DNA from: Escherichia coli
Lineage (GTDB): Bacteria > Pseudomonadota > Gammaproteobacteria > Enterobacterales > Enterobacteriaceae
DNA length: 64,000 bases
Assembly (NCBI RefSeq): GCF_022846255.1
Contig: NZ_AP025682.1
Strand: one strand, 5' to 3'
Shown here piece after piece: positions 1 to 55,633 of the stretch. A model generated the notes under the pieces. It was given only the letters and a program-made list of their open reading frames with translations, was not told where the DNA came from and made no database searches. The position numbers and the translations under genes are program-made. Every line of letters begins with the position of its first letter. Within the stretch, counting starts at the first letter, position 1.

Positions 1-1145
1 TCGGATTTAACGCTCTCGATAAATTCAAACGAGCTACCGGCACTCTGTTGCAGCTCCAGCAGGCTTTGCATCCAGCGCTGGGCGCGGATTTGCGCGGTGG
101 TGCTGGTTTCGCCGTGCTCTTTATAAGCCCAGTGCGCGGCAACACCCATCTCTGCCATCTGATCCATATCTTCGGTACGGATCTGGACCTCAACCGGCAC
201 GCCGTGCGGGCCAATCATCGAGGTGTGCAAAGACTGATAGCCGTTCGCTTTTGGAATGGCGATATAGTCTTTCACGCGGCCCGGACGCGGCTTGTACAGG
301 CTGTGCATCTGGCCCAGCACGCGATAACAGGTGTCAGAATCATTGACGATCACGCGGAAAGCGTAGATGTCCATGATTGAGTGAAAACGCTGCTCTTTGA
401 GCACCATTTTGCAGTAAATCGAATAAAGATGCTTTTCGCGACCACTGACGCGGCACGGTATTCCCGCTTCCTGCAAACGCCCTTCGATTTCAGAAAGAAT
501 CTTCTGGATCATCTCTTTACGGTTGCCGCGCGCGGCTTTCACCACTTCTTTGATTACGCGATAACGGTTGGGATACAGCGCCTCAAAACCCAGCTCTTCG
601 AGTTCGGTTTTAATGTGGTGGATACCTAAACGGTGTGCCAGCGGGCTGTAAATTTCGAGGGTTTCACGGGCGATGCGGCGACGTTTGTCCGGGCGAAGTG
701 CGCCCAGCGTGCGCATGTTGTGGGTACGGTCGGCAAGTTTGATGAGAATGACGCGGATATCCTGCACCATCGCCATAATCATCTTGCGAAAGTTTTCGGC
801 CTGCGCCTCTTTCTTATCGCGGAACTTGAGCTTATCAAGTTTCGACACCCCCTCTACCAGCTCGGCGACGCTTTTACCAAAAAGCTGTTCCATGTCCTGG
901 TAGGTGGCGGGAGTATCTTCAATCACGTCATGCAGCAGCGCCGCCATCAGCGTTTCATAGTCGAGTTTCATCTCGGCCAGAATGCAGGCAACCGCCACCG
1001 GGTGCGTGATATAGGGTTCACCGCTTGAACGTGTTTGCCCCTCGTGAGCATCACGTGCAACGAGATACGCCTGCCGCAGACGCTTGATTTGGTCTTCCGG
1101 CAGGTAGTTTTGAATCAGCTGATTCAGGCTTTCAAACAGATACAA
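1..1145 (-). CDS. spoT: Bifunctional (p)ppGpp synthetase/hydrolase SpoT, N-terminal part; 3' end lies beyond window start
   Basis: Reverse translation from 1145 reads (TTG)YLFESLNQLIQ..., matching the SpoT N-terminus; TTG start at 1143-1145; sits downstream of rpoZ as in the gmk-rpoZ-spoT operon. Confidence 0.9.
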   Translation of the reverse strand, partial: MYLFESLNQLIQNYLPEDQIKRLRQAYLVARDAHEGQTRSSGEPYITHPVAVACILAEMKLDYETLMAALLHDVIEDTPATYQDMEQLFGKSVAELVEGVSKLDKLKFRDKKEAQAENFRKMIMAMVQDIRVILIKLADRTHNMRTLGALRPDKRRRIARETLEIYSPLAHRLGIHHIKTELEELGFEALYPNRYRVIKEVVKAARGNRKEMIQKILSEIEGRLQEAGIPCRVSGREKHLYSIYCKMVLKEQRFHSIMDIYAFRVIVNDSDTCYRVLGQMHSLYKPRPGRVKDYIAIPKANGYQSLHTSMIGPHGVPVEVQIRTEDMDQMAEMGVAAHWAYKEHGETSTTAQIRAQRWMQSLLELQQSAGSSFEFIESVKS

Positions 1146-1163
1146 GGGCGACCCGCTTTGTGA

Positions 1164-4671: not shown

Positions 4672-4981
4672 GGTTCTCTCCCTAAAAATCTGTCTGGCAG
4701 GGTAGCGATTTGTGCGTATTGTCACGATTGAGATTTTTTAAGGTGAGAGGAAATTGATAACTTTTAGTTATGTGAAATCGCTATTTTCTGTAGCGTAGAT
4801 GTATTCTTCTGACTTCTTGTCTGAGAAAATGCATAAGAAAAAATAGGTTAAAATTGAGGGTGGAAAAGAAAGGTGCAATGTTTAGCCATTGTGTTCACCG
4901 CACCTGGACTTTGGCTTACGCATCGGGTATCTCAATCAACAAAAAGAGTTTTTAGTTTCTGCTATTTCTTCTCTGTAATTT

Positions 4982-5239
4982 TTACACTGTTTTCCAACTG
5001 CTTGATGCTGACCTGCGGGGTCGGCAACTTAATACAACCATTTTGGTGGTTTCAACGAAATGGTCAGATGCAGCTTGATTGCTGGCTTCGCACGCTTGAG
5101 TCGCGCGGGCCAGTACCTTTTGAAAATTGCGCGAGTCCCGATAATCCAGTAACGGTGCCAATTCTCTCGCTGACCAAAATTCTTGCCCTTCAGTGCCATA
5201 ATGCCGTATTTCTTCAAAAGGTTGATGATGTTCGTTCAT
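4982..5239 (-). pseudogene. dinD: Truncated DNA-damage-inducible protein DinD (about 85 aa left of a ~274-aa protein)
   Basis: ORF MNEHHQPFEEIRHYGTEGQEFWSARELAPLLDYRDSRNFQKVLARA... matches the DinD N-terminus, then diverges and stops; no long in-frame continuation on the minus strand between 4726 and 4982; LexA box just upstream; position between yicC and yicG matches dinD. Confidence 0.55.
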
Positions 5240-10270: not shown

Positions 10271-10441
10271 GATGATTTTTCCTGTTGGGTGACACCAGAA
10301 GTTGGCGATTTTATCACAATACTTTTGTTGTCGTGCCTTCACCTGAGATTCACTTTGCGAGGCGCTTTCCAGGATTGAAAACTGGCCGTCGATTTAAAGG
10401 AACGGCTATGACAGGATGCGAGCACCACAAAGGAGGTGAAG

Positions 10442-14775: not shown

Positions 14776-14825
14776 AGTGCGGTATCAGTATTCAGGTAGC
14801 TGTTGAGCCTGGGGCGGTAGCGTGC
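14776..14825 (+). promoter_or_regulatory. JUMPstart region with ops element GGCGGTAGCGTG (14813-14824) in the waaQ operon leader
   Basis: Exact 12-nt ops sequence about 50-100 nt upstream of the waaQ start on the coding strand; RfaH-dependent antitermination is established for waaQ operons. Confidence 0.7.
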
Positions 14826-14873
14826 TTTTTCTGCTTCACCTTAATCGGATAATCTCAACAAAAAGAGTTACTT

Positions 14874-15932
14874 GTGGATAAGCCATTTCGAAGAATTTTG
14901 CTCATTAAGATGCGTTTTCATGGGGATATGTTATTAACTACTCCCGTCATTAGTTCGCTGAAAAAAAATTACCCTGACGCAAAAATCGATGTGCTGCTTT
15001 ATCAGGACACCATCCCGATCCTGTCTGAAAATCCAGAGATTAACGCGCTCTACGGCATAAAAAATAAAAAAGCAAAAGCTTCAGAAAAAATTGCCAACTT
15101 TTTTCATCTCATCAAGGTATTACGTGCCAATAAGTATGACCTTATCGTTAATCTTACCGATCAATGGATGGTTGCTATACTGGTTCGCTTATTAAATGCC
15201 CGTGTGAAAATTTCCCAGGATTATCATCATCGGCAGTCTGCTTTTTGGCGTAATAGTTTCACTCATTTGGTGCCGTTGCAGGGTGGAAATGTGGTGGAAA
15301 GTAACTTATCCGTGCTGACGCCATTGGGACTTGAATCGTTGGTGAAGCAGACAACCATGAGTTACCCGCCTGCAAGCTGGAAACGTATGCGTCGCGAACT
15401 TGATCACGCTGGTGTTGGACAAAATTATGTGGTTATCCAACCTACGGCGCGGCAAATCTTCAAATGCTGGGACAACGCCAAGTTTTCCGCTGTGATTGAT
15501 GCCTTACATGCTCGTGGTTATGAAGTCGTTCTGACGTCCGGCCCAGATAAAGACGATCTGGCCTGCGTCAATGAAATTGCGCAGGGATGCCAGACGCCAC
15601 CAGTAACGGCGCTGGCCGGAAAGGTGACCTTCCCGGAACTTGGTGCGTTAATCGATCATGCGCAGCTGTTTATTGGCGTTGATTCCGCACCGGCGCATAT
15701 TGCCGCTGCAGTTAATACGCCGCTGATATCGCTGTTTGGTGCGACAGACCATATTTTCTGGCGTCCCTGGTCAAATAACATGATTCAATTCTGGGCGGGA
15801 GATTACCGGGAAATGCCAACGCGCGATCAGCGTGACCGAAATGAGATGTATCTTTCGGTTATTCCGGCGGCAGATGTCATTGCTGCTGTCGATAAATTAC
15901 TGCCCTCCTTCACGACAGGTACGTCGTTATGA
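14874..15932 (+). CDS. waaQ: LPS heptosyltransferase III WaaQ
   Basis: ORF ...MRFHGDMLLTTPVISSLKKNYPDAKIDVLLYQD...; start ambiguous: GTG 14874, TTG 14898 or ATG 14910. Confidence 0.9.
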   Translation: MDKPFRRILLIKMRFHGDMLLTTPVISSLKKNYPDAKIDVLLYQDTIPILSENPEINALYGIKNKKAKASEKIANFFHLIKVLRANKYDLIVNLTDQWMVAILVRLLNARVKISQDYHHRQSAFWRNSFTHLVPLQGGNVVESNLSVLTPLGLESLVKQTTMSYPPASWKRMRRELDHAGVGQNYVVIQPTARQIFKCWDNAKFSAVIDALHARGYEVVLTSGPDKDDLACVNEIAQGCQTPPVTALAGKVTFPELGALIDHAQLFIGVDSAPAHIAAAVNTPLISLFGATDHIFWRPWSNNMIQFWAGDYREMPTRDQRDRNEMYLSVIPAADVIAAVDKLLPSFTTGTSL

Positions 15933-21674: not shown

Positions 21675-22448
21675 ATGAACTTGCCCATTTATATTGTCTC
21701 ACTTAAAAGAGATATTGAGCGAAGAAATAAAATAAATGATGTTTTTCATCGATTAAATATTAATTTTGATTTTTTTGATGCCATAGATGCTAAAGACCCT
21801 CAAAATAAAGAAATTATTGATAAAATGAGATTAAGTGGTGTCGGCGCAGAAATGACTGATGGAGAAATTGCTTGTACATTAAGTCATCAGCTTATATATC
21901 AGGATATGATAGATAAAAATATAGAATGGGCAGTCATTCTCGAGGATGATGTTATCGTCAATGAGAGATTTAAAAAATTTCTGCAATATTTTAATCTTTC
22001 TGAAAAAGACAAGTTAAAACATAATAATTTGTATTTGCTTGGAGGACAGAAAGGATTACATGATTATCCGGTATTGGGGCAAAGCCTTTTTAGTAAAGTT
22101 AAGGTAAGTACTTGTACTTTTCGGCGTGTTAATTTCAATAAAAATAAAATTCGGCGTACATGTTCATATTTGATGAATAAAGATATGGCACAAAAGTTGC
22201 TCAAATTGACAATGGATTGTGGCACCTATCGAGCTGATAGCTGGAAGTTAATGCATCAACATAATATTATAAAAGATTTTTATTTAGACGAAATAATATT
22301 ACATCCTATTTTAAATGAGTTTAATAGTCACCTTGAAAGTGAAAGGCTTTTAATATCGGAAAAAAAACAACCCAGGACAAGGCTTCAGAAAAAAATGAAG
22401 TTTATACGTTCCTGGATAAAGGTGGCTTTTTTTTCTCTTTTGAAATGA
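21675..22448 (+). CDS. Family-25-like beta-glycosyltransferase (LgtB/Lic2A-like): WaaV (R1) or WaaX (R4)
   Basis: 257-aa ORF MNLPIYIVSLKRDIERRNKINDVF...FDFFDAIDAKD...ACTLSHQLIYQDMIDKN...AVILEDDVIV resembles LgtB-type transferases; I cannot tell WaaV from WaaX without a reference alignment. Confidence 0.7.
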   Translation: MNLPIYIVSLKRDIERRNKINDVFHRLNINFDFFDAIDAKDPQNKEIIDKMRLSGVGAEMTDGEIACTLSHQLIYQDMIDKNIEWAVILEDDVIVNERFKKFLQYFNLSEKDKLKHNNLYLLGGQKGLHDYPVLGQSLFSKVKVSTCTFRRVNFNKNKIRRTCSYLMNKDMAQKLLKLTMDCGTYRADSWKLMHQHNIIKDFYLDEIILHPILNEFNSHLESERLLISEKKQPRTRLQKKMKFIRSWIKVAFFSLLK

Positions 22449-22482
22449 GATTGTTAATTTAAATTTATTGTGAGATATTAAC

Positions 22483-40323: not shown

Positions 40324-41978
40324 TAAGGAATCATCCACGTTAAGACATAGGCCTGAAGCGTGGTGATCACGCCCACCATACAGGTGAAGATCAGGCTGTG
40401 TTTGACAGTAAAGCGGAACAAATCAGACTCTTTGCCCACCAGGCCTACCGCCGCACAGGCGATAGCGATAGATTGCGGAGAGATCATTTTGCCGGTGACA
40501 CCACCGGTGGTGTTGGCAGCAACCAGCAACAGGTCAGAAACGCCAATTTGTTGTGCGGCGGTAGCCTGCAAAGCGGCAAACAAAGCATTAGATGACGTAT
40601 CCGACCCGGTCAGGAATACCCCAAGCCAGCCGAGGAACGGCGAGAAGAAGGTGAATGCATGACCGGTGTGCGCCAGTGCCAGCGCCAGTGTTGATGACAA
40701 ACCGGAATAGTTCGAGATAAAGGCGAACGCCAGCACCATACCGATGGAGTAGATAGGCAGAGCCAGTTCTTTCAGCGTGCTGCCGAAGGTGCTGATAGCG
40801 TCAGATGGTTTCATCTTCAGCCAGACAATCGAGAGCAGGGCAGCAAAAAGAATGGCGGTACCGGTGGCAGAGAACCAGTCAAACTTAAACACGGCGGCAT
40901 ACGCTGTCGCTTCGCTGACCACTGGCGGCATACGGGCAACCAGTTTATCGAGGTACGGCACCGGAATGTTGATCACCCACTCATACAGCGCACCGCCTGA
41001 AGCGAACAGGGCTTTAAACGGCGGGATACTCCACAGCGTTACGGTGGCGGTCAGGAACAGAAACGGTGTCCAGGCGCGCAGCACCTGACCTGCCGTGTAA
41101 CCTGTGTGAGCCAGCGTCATATCAACCTGTGACGCCCCCAAGTCACCGAAGCGGAATACGCGCACTGGTTGCCAGCGTTTGAGGAACAGCGTCAGGCAGA
41201 GCAGTGATACCAGCGAAGAGATAATGTCTGGCAGTTCCGGCCCAATGAAGTTAGAGCTGAGGTATTGAGCAATGGCAAACGAACCACCTGCAACCACGAC
41301 CGCAGGCCACGTCTCTTTGATACCGCGCCAACCGTCCATAATCGCCATGATCCAGAACAGCACGATAATGGTCATAAACGGCAGCTGACGCCCCACCATC
41401 TGACCAATCTCAAAGCTGTCGATGCCTGTTACCTGCCCGGCGACCAGAATCGGAATACCCATCGCGCCAAATGCCACTGGTGCGGTGTTAACAATCAGGC
41501 ACAGTCCGGCGGCGTAGAGTGGTTTAAAGCCCAGACCGACCAGCAATGCGGCGGTAATTGCTACCGGTGCGCCAAAGCCTGCGGCTCCTTCAAGGAAAGC
41601 GCCGAAACAGAAACCGACGATCAGCATTTGCAGGCGCTGGTCAGGGGTTATCGAAAGAATAGACGAGCGAATGATGTCAAACTGCCCGGTTTTCACCGAG
41701 ATCTTATAGACGAACACCGCTGCAATAATGATCCACGCGATGGGCCACAACCCGTAGAAGAAGCCATAAACCACCGAGGCCAGCGCGTTAGCGACCGGCA
41801 TTTTATAGAACAGCAAAGCCACGGCAAGGGCGATTGCCACCGTCCATGAGGCGGCGACGTATCCTTTCAGTTTGAGCTTAATCAGCGCAAAGAAGAAAAA
41901 CAGGATGGGAAGCGATGCTATCAGGCTGGAAAGCCAGATATTCCCGGCGGGATCGTAGTTTTGTTGCCAGAGATTCAT
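40323..41978 (-). CDS. lldP: L-lactate permease
   Basis: ORF contains [44 protein letters not shown]...; 551 aa, polytopic. Confidence 0.95.
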
Positions 41979-42273: not shown

Positions 42274-42357
42274 GCCGGATGCGGCGTGAACGCCTTATCC
42301 GGCCTACAGGGTAGTGCTGAATCACCCCGTAGGCCTGATAAGCGTAGCGCATCAGGC
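42274..42357. repeat. BIME: two inverted REP elements between the adhesin gene 3' end and the lldP promoter
   Basis: GCCGGATGCGGCGTGAACGCCTTATCCGGCCTAC followed by inverted REP GTAGGCCTGATAAGCGTAGCGCATCAGGC. Confidence 0.75.
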
Positions 42358-42389
42358 AATGTGGCGTTTACCCATTTGTTAATGGATCA

Positions 42390-45300
42390 TTACCACTGAA
42401 TACCAGCACCGAGTGCGGCGGAGTATTCACCCTGGCTATTGGTACTACCTTGTAATTTGTAGACCCAACGACCATTGGCGCTCACCATCGACACACCTAA
42501 AGCAACAGCCGATTCACCGTTGTAAGTACCGCCACCAATAGACGCCATGCTGGCACCCGGCGTGTAAGCCTGCGGCAGACCGGTCATTGCCATTGCAGAA
42601 GCGATACCACCACTCAGCTTGCTTTCAGTTTTGGACAGTTTGTTATCCATCTCAACCATGCGCTGATCGGTGTATTGCTTCGTTTCCTGCACACTTTGCT
42701 TCAACTGCGCATAGTTCACTGCGTCGTTGTTGTTCACGCCAGCAGAAACGTTGCTGATGCGAGTCGTACCGCTATTGCCGCCACCGAGAGTGATGTTGCT
42801 GTAGTCGATAGAGCCATCAGCTTTGGTGTCGTAGCGCACGCCGCCTGCTTCAGAAGACTTCAGTTGCGAAACGTTAACCGCATCGGTGGCATTAACACCG
42901 GCAGCAACGTTGGTGATACGGCGCTGGTTGGTAGAAGAACCCACAGAGATCGTATTTTCTTCGTCTGCTACGGAACCCGTGCCCAGTGCGACGCTGTTGT
43001 CAGCGGCAGCAATGGAACCAGAACCAATCGCAACACTGTCTTTACCCTGCGCGTTGGCGTCTGCGCCATCGGTGTTGGTCTTGAAGTACTTAGTGCTACC
43101 GGTGGTTACGATATCGCCAATGCCGTTTTCGATATTGGTCACGCGAGTATCCAGATTAGTGACCTGAGTGTTCAGGTTAGTAATGCTCTGGGTATTCTGG
43201 GAAACCTGCGCGTCCGTTACTTTCAACTGACCCACGTTAACCGCATCGGTATCCGCCGAACCTGCTGCGACGTTGGTGATCTGACGTTGACCGTCTTCAC
43301 TGCCGACAGAGAACTCACCCACAGAGTTCTGCGGTGCGTCCATGTTGTAGGCAGTGTAGTTGGTCTGCGCGCCACGGGTAGTCTGAGAACCATTACCCAT
43401 TGCAATGCTGTCGGCATGATTTGCGCGTGCGTTAGAACCGATAGCAATACCGTTGATCGCATCAGCCAGAACTAAAGTGTTCAGGCCGATACCAATACCC
43501 GCATTACCATTAACGATGGTTTTCGCGCCCATTGCCAGCGAGTCTTCACCGACTGCCAGTGAGTCTTCAGCCGTTGAGTTGGCGTGATAGTATTTGGTTG
43601 GTGTGGTTGCGACTGCACCAATGGCGTTCTGCAACTGGCGAACAGTAACAGCGTCATGGGCTTCAGAACCATCCGCGACGTTGATGATTTGACGATATTT
43701 ACCATCATCACCGATCGACAATGCACCAAGCAGTTCGCCGTCAGTTGTGTCATAACCAATAACCACTCCATCTTCTGTTACGCTGGTAGAGCGTGAACCT
43801 TTCAAAATGACCCGGTTAGAGACCGAATTGCTGCCTAATGCGATGCCGGAATCGATAGTGCTACTGCTGTTCTGACCAATCGCGACACTGCTTTCCCCGG
43901 AAGCGACAGAGTTATAACCCACAGCCGTTGAGCCAACGCCCGCGGCGCTTGCGTCGACAAAGGTTAAGCCCGTGTCGTTGGTGCGAACATAGTTAATACC
44001 CGCCCCATTTTCTTCGATATAGGTACTGTTAGTATTACCGGCGAGTTGGTTGATGATCTCACTATTCTGATTGATCAACATATTCGCGGCATACAACTGA
44101 GAACCGTTAACGGCATCGGTACTGGCGGCAGAAAGTTCACCTGCGGCAACATTCGTGATTTTGCTGGTGGTGTTAGTGCCGTGCGCCGCAGAGAATGAGC
44201 CGGATACGGAATCCCACGTCATCGCATCTTCACCGAGACTGTCGATAGCATCAGTCAGATTGGTGATGTTGGTAGTGTTAGTGGCAACGTCAGTGGTCAG
44301 ATTACTGATATTGGTGGTGTTGGCTGCCACATTCTCGTTGGTAGTATTCAACTGAGAGCCATTAATCGCATCAGTACTGGTGGCACTGATCTCACCCGCA
44401 GCAACATAAGCGATTTTGCTGGCACTACCACCGTGACTGGCACTGAAACTGCCTGAAGCGTTGTCCCAGAGCAGGGCATCGCCGAGTGAGGTTCCGACCG
44501 AAGTGTTAATGGCTGCCAGGGCATCGCCTACGCTGTTGTAGTCAGTTCCATTAATACTATAGGTTGGGCCAGTAAATACACCTGTATCACTTACAGTGGC
44601 ACCGCCACCAAAATAATCCGCTACCGTACTGCTAAGACCGTAGAGTTGTCCACCGTTCACGGCATCGGTACTGGTGGCAGAAATAGCACCTGCGGTGACA
44701 TTGGTGATTTTGCTGGTGGCGTCAGTGCCGTGCGCAGCGCTGAATGCTGTGCCCTTCCACAACAGAGAATCGTCACCGAGACTGTCAACAGCGTCAGTCA
44801 GGTTAGTGATACTGGTGGTATTGCCAGCGACGTCGTTGGTCAGATTAGTGATATTGGTAGTGTTGGCAGCAACATCGTCTTTGGTGGCTTTCAACTGCGA
44901 ACCGTTAACGGCGTCAGTGCTGCCAGCTGTCAGGTCACCGGCTTTGACATTGGTGATTTTGCTGGTGGCGTCAGTGCCGTGCGCAGCGCTGAATGCTGTG
45001 CCCTTCCACAACAGAGAATCGTCACCGAGACTGTCAACAGCGTCAGTCAGGTTAGTGATACTGGTGGTATTGCCAGCGACGTCGTTGGTCAGATTAGTGA
45101 TATTGGTAGTGTTGGCAGCAACATCGTCTTTGGTGGCTTTCAACTGCGAACCGTTAACGGCGTCAGTGCTGCCAGCTGTCAGGTCACCGGCTTTGACATT
45201 GGTGATTTTGCTGGTGGCGTCAGTGCCGTGCGCAGCGCTGAATGCTGTGCCCTTCCACAACAGAGAATCGTCACCGAGACTGTCAACAGCGTCAGTCAGG

Positions 45301-47021
45301 TTAGTGATACTGGTGGTATTGCCAGCGACGTCGTTGGTCAGATTAGTGATATTGGTAGTGTTGGCAGCAACGTCGTCTTTGGTGGCTTTCAACTGCGAAC
45401 CGTTAACAGCGTCAGTGCTGCCAGCAGTCAGGCTGCCAGCACTGACGTTGGTGATTTTGCTGGTGGCTTCGGTGCCGTGTGCGGCACTGAATGCTGTGCC
45501 GTTCCACAACAGAGCATCCTGCTGCAGGTCGTACAATTGAGAGCCGTTTACTACATCGGTGCTGGTTGCAGAAACCGTACCTTTAGCAACATTAGTGATT
45601 TTGTTGGTGGCATTTGCACCGTGATTGGCGCTGAACGCCCCCGCGGTTTTATTCCATTGTAGGGTATTATTGTCGATTCCTGACAGAGCATCACCCACGT
45701 TATTATAGGTTCCGCTTCTCAACGCGTAGCTTACTGCGGTTACGGTGCCATCGCTGCCTACAGTAGCGCCTCCTCCGAGTCGCTTGGCGACTGAATCACT
45801 GATCGTATAAAGCTGTGAGCCGTTGATGGCATCGGTACTGGTGTTGCTTATGGCACCAGCAGCCATATTAACAATTTTGCGTTTTGTTGCGCTGTTGCCA
45901 ACTGAAACCGTATTGCTTGCATCTGTGGTCGATCCTGCGCCGATAGCGACAGAATTGTCGGTCGCTGCTGCAGCCCCTACACCGAGGGCGACAGAATCAT
46001 TGCCGTTTGCCCTGGACTGGCTACCGAAAGCAAGGCTGTTGCTGCCACCAGCGGCACTACCCTCTCCCAATGCGATGGCATTCTCTCCCGAGGACAAACT
46101 GTTACTTCCCAACGCGATTGAGTTCACTTTGCTTGCAATGCTACCTTGCCCCAGCGCAATCGCATTTTGTTCGCTGGCTTCACTGGTGTTACCTAATGCA
46201 ATACTGGATTCGCCAGATGCCTGACTTGCATTACCCAGGGCCATCGAATTCACTCCCAGGGCTTGCGTTTTGTTCCCAATCGCGATGGCGTTATCGTTCG
46301 AACTGATACTGTCAGCACCTATTGCCAGTGAGCCAGTGCTATTAGCTGTAGATTGTCTGCCGAATGCGAGGCTATCAGCACCGGCAGCATTGCTACTTGC
46401 TCCCAGCGCCATTGCATAATCTTTTGACGCATTGGCATTATCACCGAGGGCGATGCTCATAATTTCGTAAGCTTTAGCCGAATTTCCTAACGCAATAGTT
46501 TTTTCACCATCGGCAAGGGAGGAGTCCCCAATAGCAAGAGATGTATAACCATTCGTCTTTGCGTAACGACCAAAAGCCATCGAACGATCGCCATTTGCTA
46601 CTGACGATGCACCCAGCGCGACACTTCTGTCACCCATTGATTTTGCACTAACCCCGAACGCCATGGATGCTCCACCAGTTGCAAGGGTTTTTGACCCGAT
46701 GGCAGAACTGTACTCACCTTCGGCTATCGCGTCATATCCTAAAGCTGTACTCGCGCCACTAGTGTTCATAAAGGTATTTGCTTTTGCCCCTTTACCGATA
46801 GCAACCCAGCCGTCACCTGCTGAGCCATCGCCATAATCAGTTGGCTGCCCGTCGTAGTTATTAGCTAACGCTCCAAACGACGACAACAACCCACCCGCAA
46901 CCAACGCAGAAATTAACAGCTTACTGCGCCCGCTTTTTTTACCACGGCTCTTCGCCGTTTCGCTGGCAACGCTGTAACTGCCCGTCGCCGGGTTCCAGAT
47001 AACTTTAAATATTTTATTCAT
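42390..47021 (-). CDS. upaG: Trimeric autotransporter adhesin, UpaG/EhaG/SadA family (1543 aa)
   Basis: N-terminal extended signal peptide [21 protein letters not shown]...; long low-complexity stalk with tandem repeats; C-terminal YadA-like anchor ending ...[13 protein letters not shown]; located between yibL and lldP, where UpaG/EhaG sit. Confidence 0.85.
44640..45620. repeat. Tandem 249-bp (83-codon) direct repeats inside the adhesin gene, about 3 near-identical copies plus diverged flanking copies
   Basis: Segment ttggtgattttgctggtggcgtcagtgccgtgcgcagcgctgaatgctgtgccc... recurs near 44701, 44950 and 45199; the protein shows the unit [25 protein letters not shown]...[11 protein letters not shown] three times. 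Confidence 0.85.
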
Positions 47022-53817: not shown

Positions 53818-54954
53818 ATGGATCTATTGATTGTTTTAACTTACGTGGCGCTGGCGTGGGCGGTCTTTAAAATCTTCCGCATTCCGGTGAATCAGTGGAC
53901 GCTGGCGACGGCGGCGCTGGGAGGCGTGTTTCTGGTGAGTGGTTTGATTTTGTTGATGAACTACAACCACCCTTACACTTTTACCGCGCAAAAGGCAGTG
54001 ATAGCGATCCCCATCACGCCACAGGTGACGGGAATTGTTACTGAAGTCACCGACAAAAATAATCAGCTTATTCAGAAGGGCGAGGTGCTTTTTAAGCTCG
54101 ACCCGGTTCGTTACCAGGCGCGAGTTGACAGGCTTCAGGCTGACCTGATGACGGCGACGCATAATATAAAGACGCTGCGCGCGCAGCTCACTGAAGCGCA
54201 GGCCAACACCACCCAGGTTTCAGCGGAGCGCGACCGTCTGTTTAAAAATTATCAACGTTATCTGAAAGGCAGCCAGGCGGCGGTGAATCCGTTCTCGGAA
54301 CGTGATATCGACGATGCGCGGCAAAATTTCCTCGCGCAGGATGCGCTGGTGAAAGGCTCGGTGGCGGAGCAGGCGCAGATCCAGAGCCAGCTCGACAGTA
54401 TGGTTAACGGCGAGCAATCGCAGATTGTGAGCTTAAGAGCGCAACTTACTGAAGCAAAATATAACCTTGAGCAGACCGTCATTCGCGCACCGAGCAATGG
54501 CTACGTCACTCAGGTACTGATCCGCCCAGGTACATACGCCGCTGCCTTGCCGCTGCGTCCGGTGATGGTCTTCATCCCCGAGCAAAAACGGCAAATTGTC
54601 GCCCAATTTCGGCAAAACTCGCTGTTACGTCTGAAACCCGGCGATGATGCGGAAGTGGTGTTTAACGCGCTACCTGGGCAGGTGTTTCACGGCAAACTGA
54701 CCAGTATTTTACCTGTCGTGCCAGGCGGTTCTTATCAGGCGCAGGGGGTATTGCAATCATTAACGGTCGTGCCCGGCACGGACGGTGTGCTGGGAACCAT
54801 TGAACTGGACCCTAACGATGATATCGATGCCTTACCCGACGGCATTTACGCCCAGGTAGCAGTTTACTCCGACCATTTCAGCCATGTTTCGGTGATGCGG
54901 AAGGTGCTGCTGAGAATGACCAGTTGGATGCATTATCTTTATTTGGATCATTGA
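53818..54954 (+). CDS. yibH: HlyD-family inner membrane protein YibH
   Basis: 378-aa ORF with N-terminal TM segment, coiled-coil region and HlyD-like C-terminus; follows yibI by 2 nt. Confidence 0.85.
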
Positions 54955-55024
54955 GACTTGTATCACCTGTGTTTTGCGCGAGCCTGAGCCATACTGATAT
55001 TTTTCCTCGCACAAAGGACTCGGC

Positions 55025-55633
55025 ATGAAACTCGTCGGTAGCTACACCAGCCCGTTTGTACGCAAACTTTCTATTCTGTTGTTAGAAAAGGGCATAACGT
55101 TCGAATTTATTAATGAACTGCCCTATAACGCGGATAACGGCGTGGCGCAATTTAACCCGTTAGGAAAAGTACCGGTACTGGTGACCGAAGAGGGCGAATG
55201 CTGGTTTGATTCACCGATCATCGCTGAATATATTGAATTAATGAATGTTGCTCCGGCGATGTTGCCGCGCGATCCGCTGGAGTCGTTGCGGGTGCGCAAA
55301 ATTGAGGCACTGGCGGATGGCATTATGGATGCCGGGCTGGTATCGGTGCGTGAACAGGCGCGTCCGGCGGCGCAGCAGTCTGAAGATGAATTGTTACGTC
55401 AGCGTGAGAAAATCAACCGCAGTCTGGATGTGCTGGAAGGATATCTGGTCGATGGCACACTCAAAACCGATACGGTCAATCTGGCGACTATCGCCATTGC
55501 CTGTGCCGTCGGATATCTCAATTTCCGCCGCGTTGCGCCAGGCTGGTGTGTCGACCGCCCACACTTAGTCAAACTGGTCGAAAACCTGTTTAGCCGCGAA
55601 AGTTTTGCTCGCACCGAACCGCCAAAGGCTTGA
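55025..55633 (+). CDS. yibF: Glutathione S-transferase-like protein YibF
   Basis: 202-aa [75 protein letters not shown]... Confidence 0.85.

Follow-up and report, generated by a model that had tools for sequence, protein, structure and literature searches.

The window, the whole 64,000-nucleotide stretch of Escherichia coli contig NZ_AP025682.1 that was analysed, opens at coordinate 1 with spoT, rpoZ and gmk on the minus strand, followed by ligB, yicG, a dinD remnant, yicC, rph and pyrE. Beyond pyrE lie slmA, dut, coaBC, yicR, rpmBG, mutM, coaD and waaA, then a nine-gene waaQ operon whose last gene is waaL, then rfaCFD and kbl-tdh, and on to aldB; waaL itself sits between a GT25 gene and rfaC. 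A megablast comparison with 5,426 complete genomes of the species placed the window on the E. coli chromosome and showed the waa block to be 99% identical to that of E. coli LR-28 (NZ_AP027512.1) and common to 690 genomes at ≥80% coverage. The RefSeq/PGAP CDS starts of LR-28 were transferred onto the whole window as start annotation. Starts of open reading frames (ORFs) were judged among the canonical codons (ATG, GTG and TTG), Shine-Dalgarno (SD) strength was taken as the duplex energy with the anti-SD, and orthologues were sampled from 80 Enterobacteriaceae loci around slmA, only some of which reach each gene.

A preliminary description of this DNA had assigned a TTG start to spoT and GTG starts to yicR, waaQ and waaL, and each call coincides exactly with the PGAP start (4/4 agreement; Table 1). 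For spoT and yicR the MG1655 starts are identical too, as is the surrounding sequence. In-frame stops lie 7 (spoT), 11 (yicR), 8 (waaQ) and 4 (waaL) codons upstream, and the codons of spoT, waaQ and waaL are the first canonical starts past those stops. The next in-frame ATG is codon 59 in spoT, 9 in yicR, 13 in waaQ and 74 in waaL; a better SD was sought at these ATGs and found at none of them, nor did a search of the four genes for a conserved in-frame ATG behind a better ribosome-binding site yield one. Across the 80 Enterobacteriaceae loci, spoT, waaQ and yicR share their start position and display 3-periodic, coding-type conservation from the start codon on. The four codons are thus very probably genuine, ordinary non-AUG initiation sites in conserved genes. 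They are already annotated and belong to known bacterial biology, with no departure from it.

Table 1 Coordinates of the start codons, coding sequences and initiation signals discussed in the text
Feature	Position	Strand	Remark
spoT TTG (UUG) initiation codon	1143..1145	-	Direct read; PGAP and MG1655 start
spoT CDS, N-terminal 381 codons	1..1145	-	Gene continues past left window end
Weak SD-like GCGGGU	1151..1156	-	5 nt upstream of spoT TTG, within motif GCGGGTCGCCC; -4.3 kcal/mol
rpoZ stop TAA	1164..1166	-	In frame with spoT, 18 nt upstream of TTG
Strong Shine-Dalgarno AAGGAGGT	10430..10437	+	Serves yicR GTG; -13.2 kcal/mol
yicR (radC-like) GTG initiation codon	10442..10444	+	PGAP and MG1655 start
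yicR CDS, 222 aa	10442..11110	+	TIGR00608 RadC family, E = 2e-96
JUMPstart RNA element	14786..14824	+	Rfam RF01707, 55.2 bits (gathering score 35)
ops site GGCGGTAGCGTG	14813..14824	+	Within JUMPstart; ends 49 nt upstream of waaQ GTG
Weak SD-like AAGAG	14863..14867	+	6 nt upstream of waaQ GTG; -2.4 kcal/mol
waaQ (rfaQ) GTG initiation codon	14874..14876	+	PGAP start
waaQ CDS, 352 aa	14874..15932	+	NF007742 RfaQ equivalog, 711 bits
Internal waaQ Met13 ATG	14910..14912	+	Start annotated in MG1655 (344 aa); SD +0.2 kcal/mol
In-frame TGA	22471..22473	+	Four codons upstream of waaL GTG; ORF boundary
waaL (O-antigen ligase) GTG initiation codon	22483..22485	+	PGAP start
waaL CDS, 417 aa	22483..23736	+	99% identical to a 3647-member cluster with PF04932 Wzy_C
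yibQ TTG initiation codon	31397..31399	-	PGAP start; fifth non-ATG start, absent from the earlier list

We searched the literature for published start-site mapping of spoT, yicR and this type of waaL and found none; only waaQ, in K-12, has one. The supplements of Giess et al. 2017 contain no entries for spoT, yicR, waaQ or waaL, and these genes are likewise absent from the main text of the Ribo-RET study of Meydan et al. (bioRxiv 10.1101/520783).

It is highly unlikely, in our assessment, that the true starts are instead the downstream in-frame ATGs (waaQ 14910, yicR Met9 or Met14, spoT Met59 or waaL Met74), and the case for such a start is best followed gene by gene. waaQ is the only one of the four where the MG1655 and PGAP starts disagree: MG1655 RefSeq begins the gene at the ATG, and some RfaQ orthologue entries are also called from that methionine (339–344 aa). 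In K-12, however, tetracycline-inhibited ribosome profiling (TetRP) identified a new rfaQ start at a GTG at -36 relative to the annotated ATG (class ‘1. new site’), and in lacZ fusions activity fell further when this GTG was mutated than when the ATG was (Nakahigashi et al. 2016, PMC4909307), both of which favour the GTG. That start mapping was done in K-12, a strain other than the window's and one with another waa core-type allele; WaaQ of the window is ~72–77% identical to the K-12 protein and, counted from the GTG, 352 aa long as against 356 aa in the K-12 type. The two start regions nevertheless align codon for codon, and the window GTG is the homologue of the K-12 -36 GTG, sharing its AAGAG motif and its V(E/D)KPFR(K/R)IL N-terminal pattern.

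Conservation points the same way. Among 30 orthologous waaQ loci, GTG occupies the homologous position in the 25 where an ungapped alignment extends that far; in three more, which differ in their leader, the start is again GTG and the translation reads MKKILVIK. An apparent TGT at the start in one locus (L014) was a 1-nt offset artefact of ungapped extrapolation, GTG being present there as well. The one remaining locus (L054), distant and paralogue-like, has ATG one codon in. Across 22 distinct orthologous sequences neither the GTG nor the AAGAG upstream of it varies, and the flanking bases do. In the 12 codons before Met13, variable sites number 8, 3 and 11 at first, second and third positions, a coding pattern that speaks against a start at the ATG, as does the replacement of Met13 by Leu (TTG) in L054.

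Protein models add to this picture. WaaQ residues 1–351 match positions 1–351 of the 352 in NF007742 (RfaQ, LPS heptosyltransferase III), with a score far above the cut-off of 467 bits, and position 1 of TIGR02201 (611 bits) aligns with WaaQ residue 7. Residue 2 of the solved WaaC and WaaF structures (WaaC: PDB 2GT1, 6DFE) aligns with that same residue, and an AlphaFold2 model (pLDDT 92.5, pTM 0.90) places β1 of WaaQ at residues 7–11. As modelled, initiation at the ATG would delete this first β-strand of the GT9 fold, together with the first six profile positions. The evidence favours the GTG and rejects the ATG at 14910 as the primary start, which leaves waaQ 12 codons too short in the MG1655 record. 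The preliminary description had offered this GTG only as possible, and it has become the best-documented of the four through TetRP and lacZ fusions in K-12 (PMC4909307).

Initiation at both sites, giving two isoforms, would be most plausible for waaQ (GTG and ATG-13) and for yicR (GTG and ATG-9), and we regard it as unlikely. Nakahigashi et al. counted 22 genes in which both sites gave signals and described removal of the new rfaQ site as having the greater effect, which is not stated to be the only effect (PMC4909307); YicR from Met9 would, for its part, still span the whole RadC profile. Set against this, rfaQ was classed as ‘1. new site’ and not with the both-sites genes (PMC4909307), a WaaQ lacking β1 would be unlikely to fold according to the structural model, and an SD is absent before both waaQ ATG-13 and yicR ATG-9.

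The preliminary description held that non-ATG starts matter for correct annotation, and among the four genes this proved to be so for waaQ, the gene with discordant records, and not for spoT, yicR or waaL. Cloning or tagging WaaQ by K-12 coordinates would lead to a truncated protein. The value is mainly one of annotation hygiene, the window call for waaQ being more accurate than the MG1655 reference record.

At yicR, the RadC-family match is strong (TIGR00608 and NF000642; 321.9 bits versus a cut-off of 133.85), and the profiles begin at YicR residues 9–11. This would accommodate a downstream start, since the profiles do not discriminate between the GTG and Met9. Initiation signals do: the GTG is preceded by AAGGAGGTGAAG, leaving a gap of 4 nt after AAGGAGGT and of 5 nt after the AGGAGG core, and is the sole candidate with a strong SD, whereas SD energies before the in-frame ATGs of codons 9 and 14 are roughly 0 to +1 kcal/mol. 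Many genera, moreover, do not keep Met at the positions of Met9 and Met14. We also rejected the GTG at 10436, where the longest ORF starts; it lies inside the SD, and so cannot be served by it, and its own SD amounts to only -2.2 kcal/mol.

The SD and start codon of yicR are conserved at the same place in >70 loci. E. coli, E. whittamii and E. albertii keep GTG in the same arrangement; Salmonella, Klebsiella, Citrobacter, Enterobacter and other genera have a strong SD and then an ATG one codon downstream of the yicR GTG position. Scattered start codons obtained by naive codon extrapolation across genera were due to this one-codon length difference. The start position is thus retained, with GTG in some genera and ATG in others, which speaks against selection for a weak start at yicR. 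Given the AUG of sister genera, the GUG of yicR is probably a variant particular to its lineage and neutral or nearly so, for which the near-consensus SD would compensate.

The waaL start had been rated the least certain of the four. The GTG call stood and the rating did not, for the start is tightly constrained by the TGA just upstream and by the codons of its homologues. WaaL homologues of 59–68% identity have their N-termini at the same aligned column, and four waaL homologues have GTG (three) or ATG (one) there, with an in-frame stop 2–11 codons upstream in every case. Within the gene, the in-frame starts that follow are a TTG at codon 25 and a GTG at codon 27, both inside a hydrophobic N-terminal segment, FIFLLYLIGLLFVPI, that we read as the putative first membrane helix. 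The first ATG, Met74, would remove the first 73 residues, which are aligned across homologues. To judge from these features, the GUG, with its weak SD and AT-rich leader, appears to be the only usable start of this membrane protein. An NCBIfam model match was sought for WaaL and none was obtained, and a literature search on the start of this waaL type yielded nothing relevant.

For spoT, the interval between the rpoZ stop and the TTG contains zero start codons, and the canonical in-frame starts after the TTG are a GTG at codon 50 and the ATG at codon 59. SpoT residues 1–381 match positions 1–381 of the 702 in NCBIfam NF008303 (SpoT equivalog, bifunctional (p)ppGpp synthase/hydrolase; E = 3.7e-260), with a score of 865 bits; the 947-bit cut-off is missed solely through truncation of the gene by the window end. 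Met59 lies 58 codons into the region that the profile covers from position 1, and the N-terminal YLF(E/D)xL motif is kept across gammaproteobacteria, both of which count against a start there. In K-12, where spoT belongs to the gmk-rpoZ-spoT-trmH-recG operon, the codon, the 18-nt rpoZ-spoT spacer and 80 nt upstream are identical in MG1655 and the window; the proteins have few amino-acid differences, such as N13 in the window for T13 in K-12, and none that is substantive. A UUG start was reportedly proposed already at the sequencing of spoT, by Sarubbi et al. in the Journal of Biological Chemistry in 1989. The native start is named as TTG in the literature (PMC7593582), and the spoT start is secure and known.

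The spoT codon is also deeply conserved. TTG was found in 52/52 Enterobacteriaceae loci reaching the gene, of the 80 fetched, and an apparent CTT in L014 was again a 1-nt offset artefact of ungapped extrapolation, with TTG present. The upstream GCGGGTCGCCC is kept across Enterobacteriaceae and the 7–9 nt after the rpoZ stop are variable; directly after the TTG, variation is 3-periodic, and in 20 codons the first, second and third positions vary at 3, 2 and 12 sites. At the DNA level, six distant gammaproteobacterial sequences, among them the 3.6-Mb chromosome CP118534.1 and a contig of Aeromonas veronii, gave TTG in five, GTG in one and ATG in none, behind an unrelated upstream spacer. Labelled relatives in the SpoT protein search include Vibrio, Aeromonas and Shewanella, and several database entries begin with a literal L or V, which fits TTG and GTG starts. 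A non-AUG spoT start thus occurred in 58/58 sequences examined, from several gammaproteobacterial lineages.

GUG and UUG are standard alternative start codons and are usually less efficient than AUG in the same context. Initiator fMet-tRNA would be expected to read the UUG of spoT and the GUG of yicR, waaQ and waaL by first-position mismatch or wobble, so that all four proteins would still start with fMet. Reporter output from GUG and UUG is 10–100% of that from AUG (Hecht et al., bioRxiv 10.1101/063800), and newly found non-ATG codons are said to ‘function efficiently’ (Nakahigashi et al., PMC4909307). The GTG start of lacI is adaptive in gut E. coli, with a measured fitness effect (Cherrak et al. 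2024, PMC11445065). Likeness to lacI lies in a weak start on a low-abundance protein, kept in evolution, where one base can tune dosage; lacI differs in encoding a sugar-utilisation regulator with a measured fitness effect, which spoT, yicR, waaQ and waaL do not. A quantitative effect on expression at the four non-AUG starts is one that we infer.

The preliminary description read translational down-tuning into all these starts, and this functional gloss is partly borne out, the start-site calls themselves being supported. It is plausible for spoT, given a non-AUG start kept across Gammaproteobacteria and a weak SD; it fits yicR poorly, with a near-perfect SD and ATG in sister genera; and at waaQ RfaH-dependent recruitment of ribosomes is a confounder. 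RfaH-controlled leaders are described as having no canonical SD and as recruiting the 30S subunit by RfaH through S10 (PMC5995543, summarising Burmann et al. 2012). The waaQ leader resembles them: waaQ is the first gene after JUMPstart/ops and has a vestigial SD, and a weak SD is expected of an RfaH-dependent leader. The lacZ constructs of Nakahigashi et al. differ in that the rfaQ GTG was active from lacUV5 with 15 nt of native 5' flank and without ops. Initiation at the waaQ GUG probably relies on RfaH-mediated 30S recruitment and not on SD strength, and the weak initiation signals of waaQ may, by analogy, reflect the RfaH mechanism rather than simple down-tuning.

At spoT, a UUG 18 nt past the in-frame rpoZ stop, combined with a weak SD, would most likely hold the synthesis of SpoT well under the level of co-transcribed ω, a proposal drawn from this arrangement and from the deep conservation of the non-AUG start; spoT may also be translationally coupled to rpoZ. 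Retention of UUG (rarely GUG, never AUG) despite unrelated spacers among the distant sequences and a one-base route to AUG would imply selection. On this comparative evidence we put at an even chance the proposal that the non-AUG start is a long-maintained dosage limiter, with selection holding SpoT far below ω. If so, replacing TTG by ATG should disturb both basal ppGpp and fitness. Deep conservation of the non-AUG start would make spoT a small but clear case of a stringent-response gene whose start-codon strength is under selection.

The starts could also be real while their non-AUG identity reflects selectively neutral drift and not a device for lowering expression, a serious possibility that we nonetheless lean against. 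It accords with yicR, where GTG is confined to Escherichia, other genera have ATG and the SD is strong everywhere, with the ATG at the same place in one waaL homologue and in one waaQ-like gene, with the wide range of GUG and UUG output relative to AUG, and with the absence of enrichment of non-ATG starts in the window. Drift sits less well with spoT, where the start stayed non-AUG in every sequence while synonymous sites and the upstream spacer turned over and a one-step ATG was always available, or with waaQ, where GTG is present in all 25 reachable loci, in L014 and in three more with a different leader.

Start codons of the 60 window genes comprise 55 ATG, 3 GTG and 2 TTG, that is, 5/60 (8%) non-ATG. 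Genome-wide proportions of ATG, GTG and TTG in E. coli are 83, 14 and 3%, with ~17% non-ATG (Hecht et al., bioRxiv 10.1101/063800). No enrichment of non-ATG starts was found in the window (5 seen versus ~10 expected; binomial P(X>=5)=0.98), and they are in fact fewer than average (P(X<=5)=0.045). With about 1 in 6 E. coli genes starting with GTG or TTG, nothing here is unexpected apart from the waaQ annotation and the conservation at spoT. SD energies of the four starts listed earlier are -13.2 (yicR), -4.3 (spoT), -2.7 (waaL) and -2.4 (waaQ) kcal/mol. The last three are weak, a point against those starts; SDs of low strength are common. Messenger RNA secondary structure was rejected as a tuning device, the folds at the four starts being no stabler than shuffled sequences (z = 0.31, -1.48, +1.82 and 0.29). 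The earlier list of non-ATG starts, correct in its four entries, had missed a fifth, the TTG of yibQ, which has an in-frame TAA 2 codons upstream and opens a protein whose N-terminus, (M)FPFRRNVLAFAALLALSSPVIAG, resembles a signal peptide.

The start of waaQ differs between annotations. In the RefSeq record of MG1655 (L002 at 14099, NC_000913.3), the gene still begins at an internal ATG, corresponding to 14910-14912 in the window, and encodes 344 amino acids, whereas PGAP assigns 356 amino acids to K-12-type WaaQ. The GTG listed in the preliminary description lies 36 nt upstream of the MG1655 ATG and is backed by tetracycline ribosome profiling (TetRP) and lacZ fusion data from K-12 (Nakahigashi et al. 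2016, PMC4909307). A JUMPstart RNA including the ops element GGCGGTAGCGTG precedes waaQ. A second ops-like 12-mer, GGCGGTAGCCTG, near the lldR/lldP genes is likely a chance match, because at least two ops matches were obtained in 2 of 100 shuffles.

Features in the window and the basis on which each was located
Feature	Position	Strand	Basis or remark
11-nt motif GCGGGTCGCCC	1146-1156	-	directly upstream of spoT TTG
dinD	~4700-5239; deletion junction near 5026-5029	-	comparison with LR-28 and K-12
JUMPstart RNA	14786-14824	+	upstream of waaQ; Rfam RF01707, 55 bits; includes ops
GT25-family glycosyltransferase gene	21675-22448	+	just upstream of waaL
yibQ TTG start codon	31397-31399	-	PGAP annotation
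Second ops-like 12-mer	40557-40568	+	near lldR/lldP
Large YadA-like adhesin gene	~42300-47021	-	divergent from LR-28
Site of missing yibH-yibF block	~54950-55025 (LR-28 side, L087, 17145-26821)		comparison with LR-28

The waa cluster itself is not of the K-12 core type, as judged from the order of its genes, waaQ-G-P-O-(GT8)-Y-(GT8)-(GT25)-L, with a GT25 gene directly before waaL, and it is common to only 690 of 5,426 genomes at ≥80% coverage.

Upstream of the spoT TTG, GCGGGTCGCCC is kept across Enterobacteriaceae genera, and the 7-9 nt following the rpoZ stop are variable. The motif is missing from the more distant homologues read (L090-L094). It may represent a weak ribosome-binding site of spoT, or a coupling element.

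Beyond the non-ATG starts previously listed for spoT, yicR, waaQ and waaL, yibQ provides a fifth in the window. A TAA lies in the same frame two codons upstream of its TTG, and the encoded N-terminus resembles a signal peptide.

Comparison with strain LR-28 (NZ_AP027512.1) revealed further differences. Between yibH and yibF, LR-28 carries a block comprising Imm57, ISEc1, RHS fragments, yibA, yhhH and rhsB, which is missing from the window. The stretch comprising the YadA-like adhesin gene (only ~90% identity at its 5' end) and the adjoining DUF3251 and yibL genes (~94%) is far more divergent from LR-28 than the flanking genes (98-100%). Relative to both LR-28 and K-12, dinD has an internal deletion of 543 bp that breaks the frame and spares only ~210 nt at the 5' end and ~70 nt at the 3' end; dinD is probably a pseudogene remnant.
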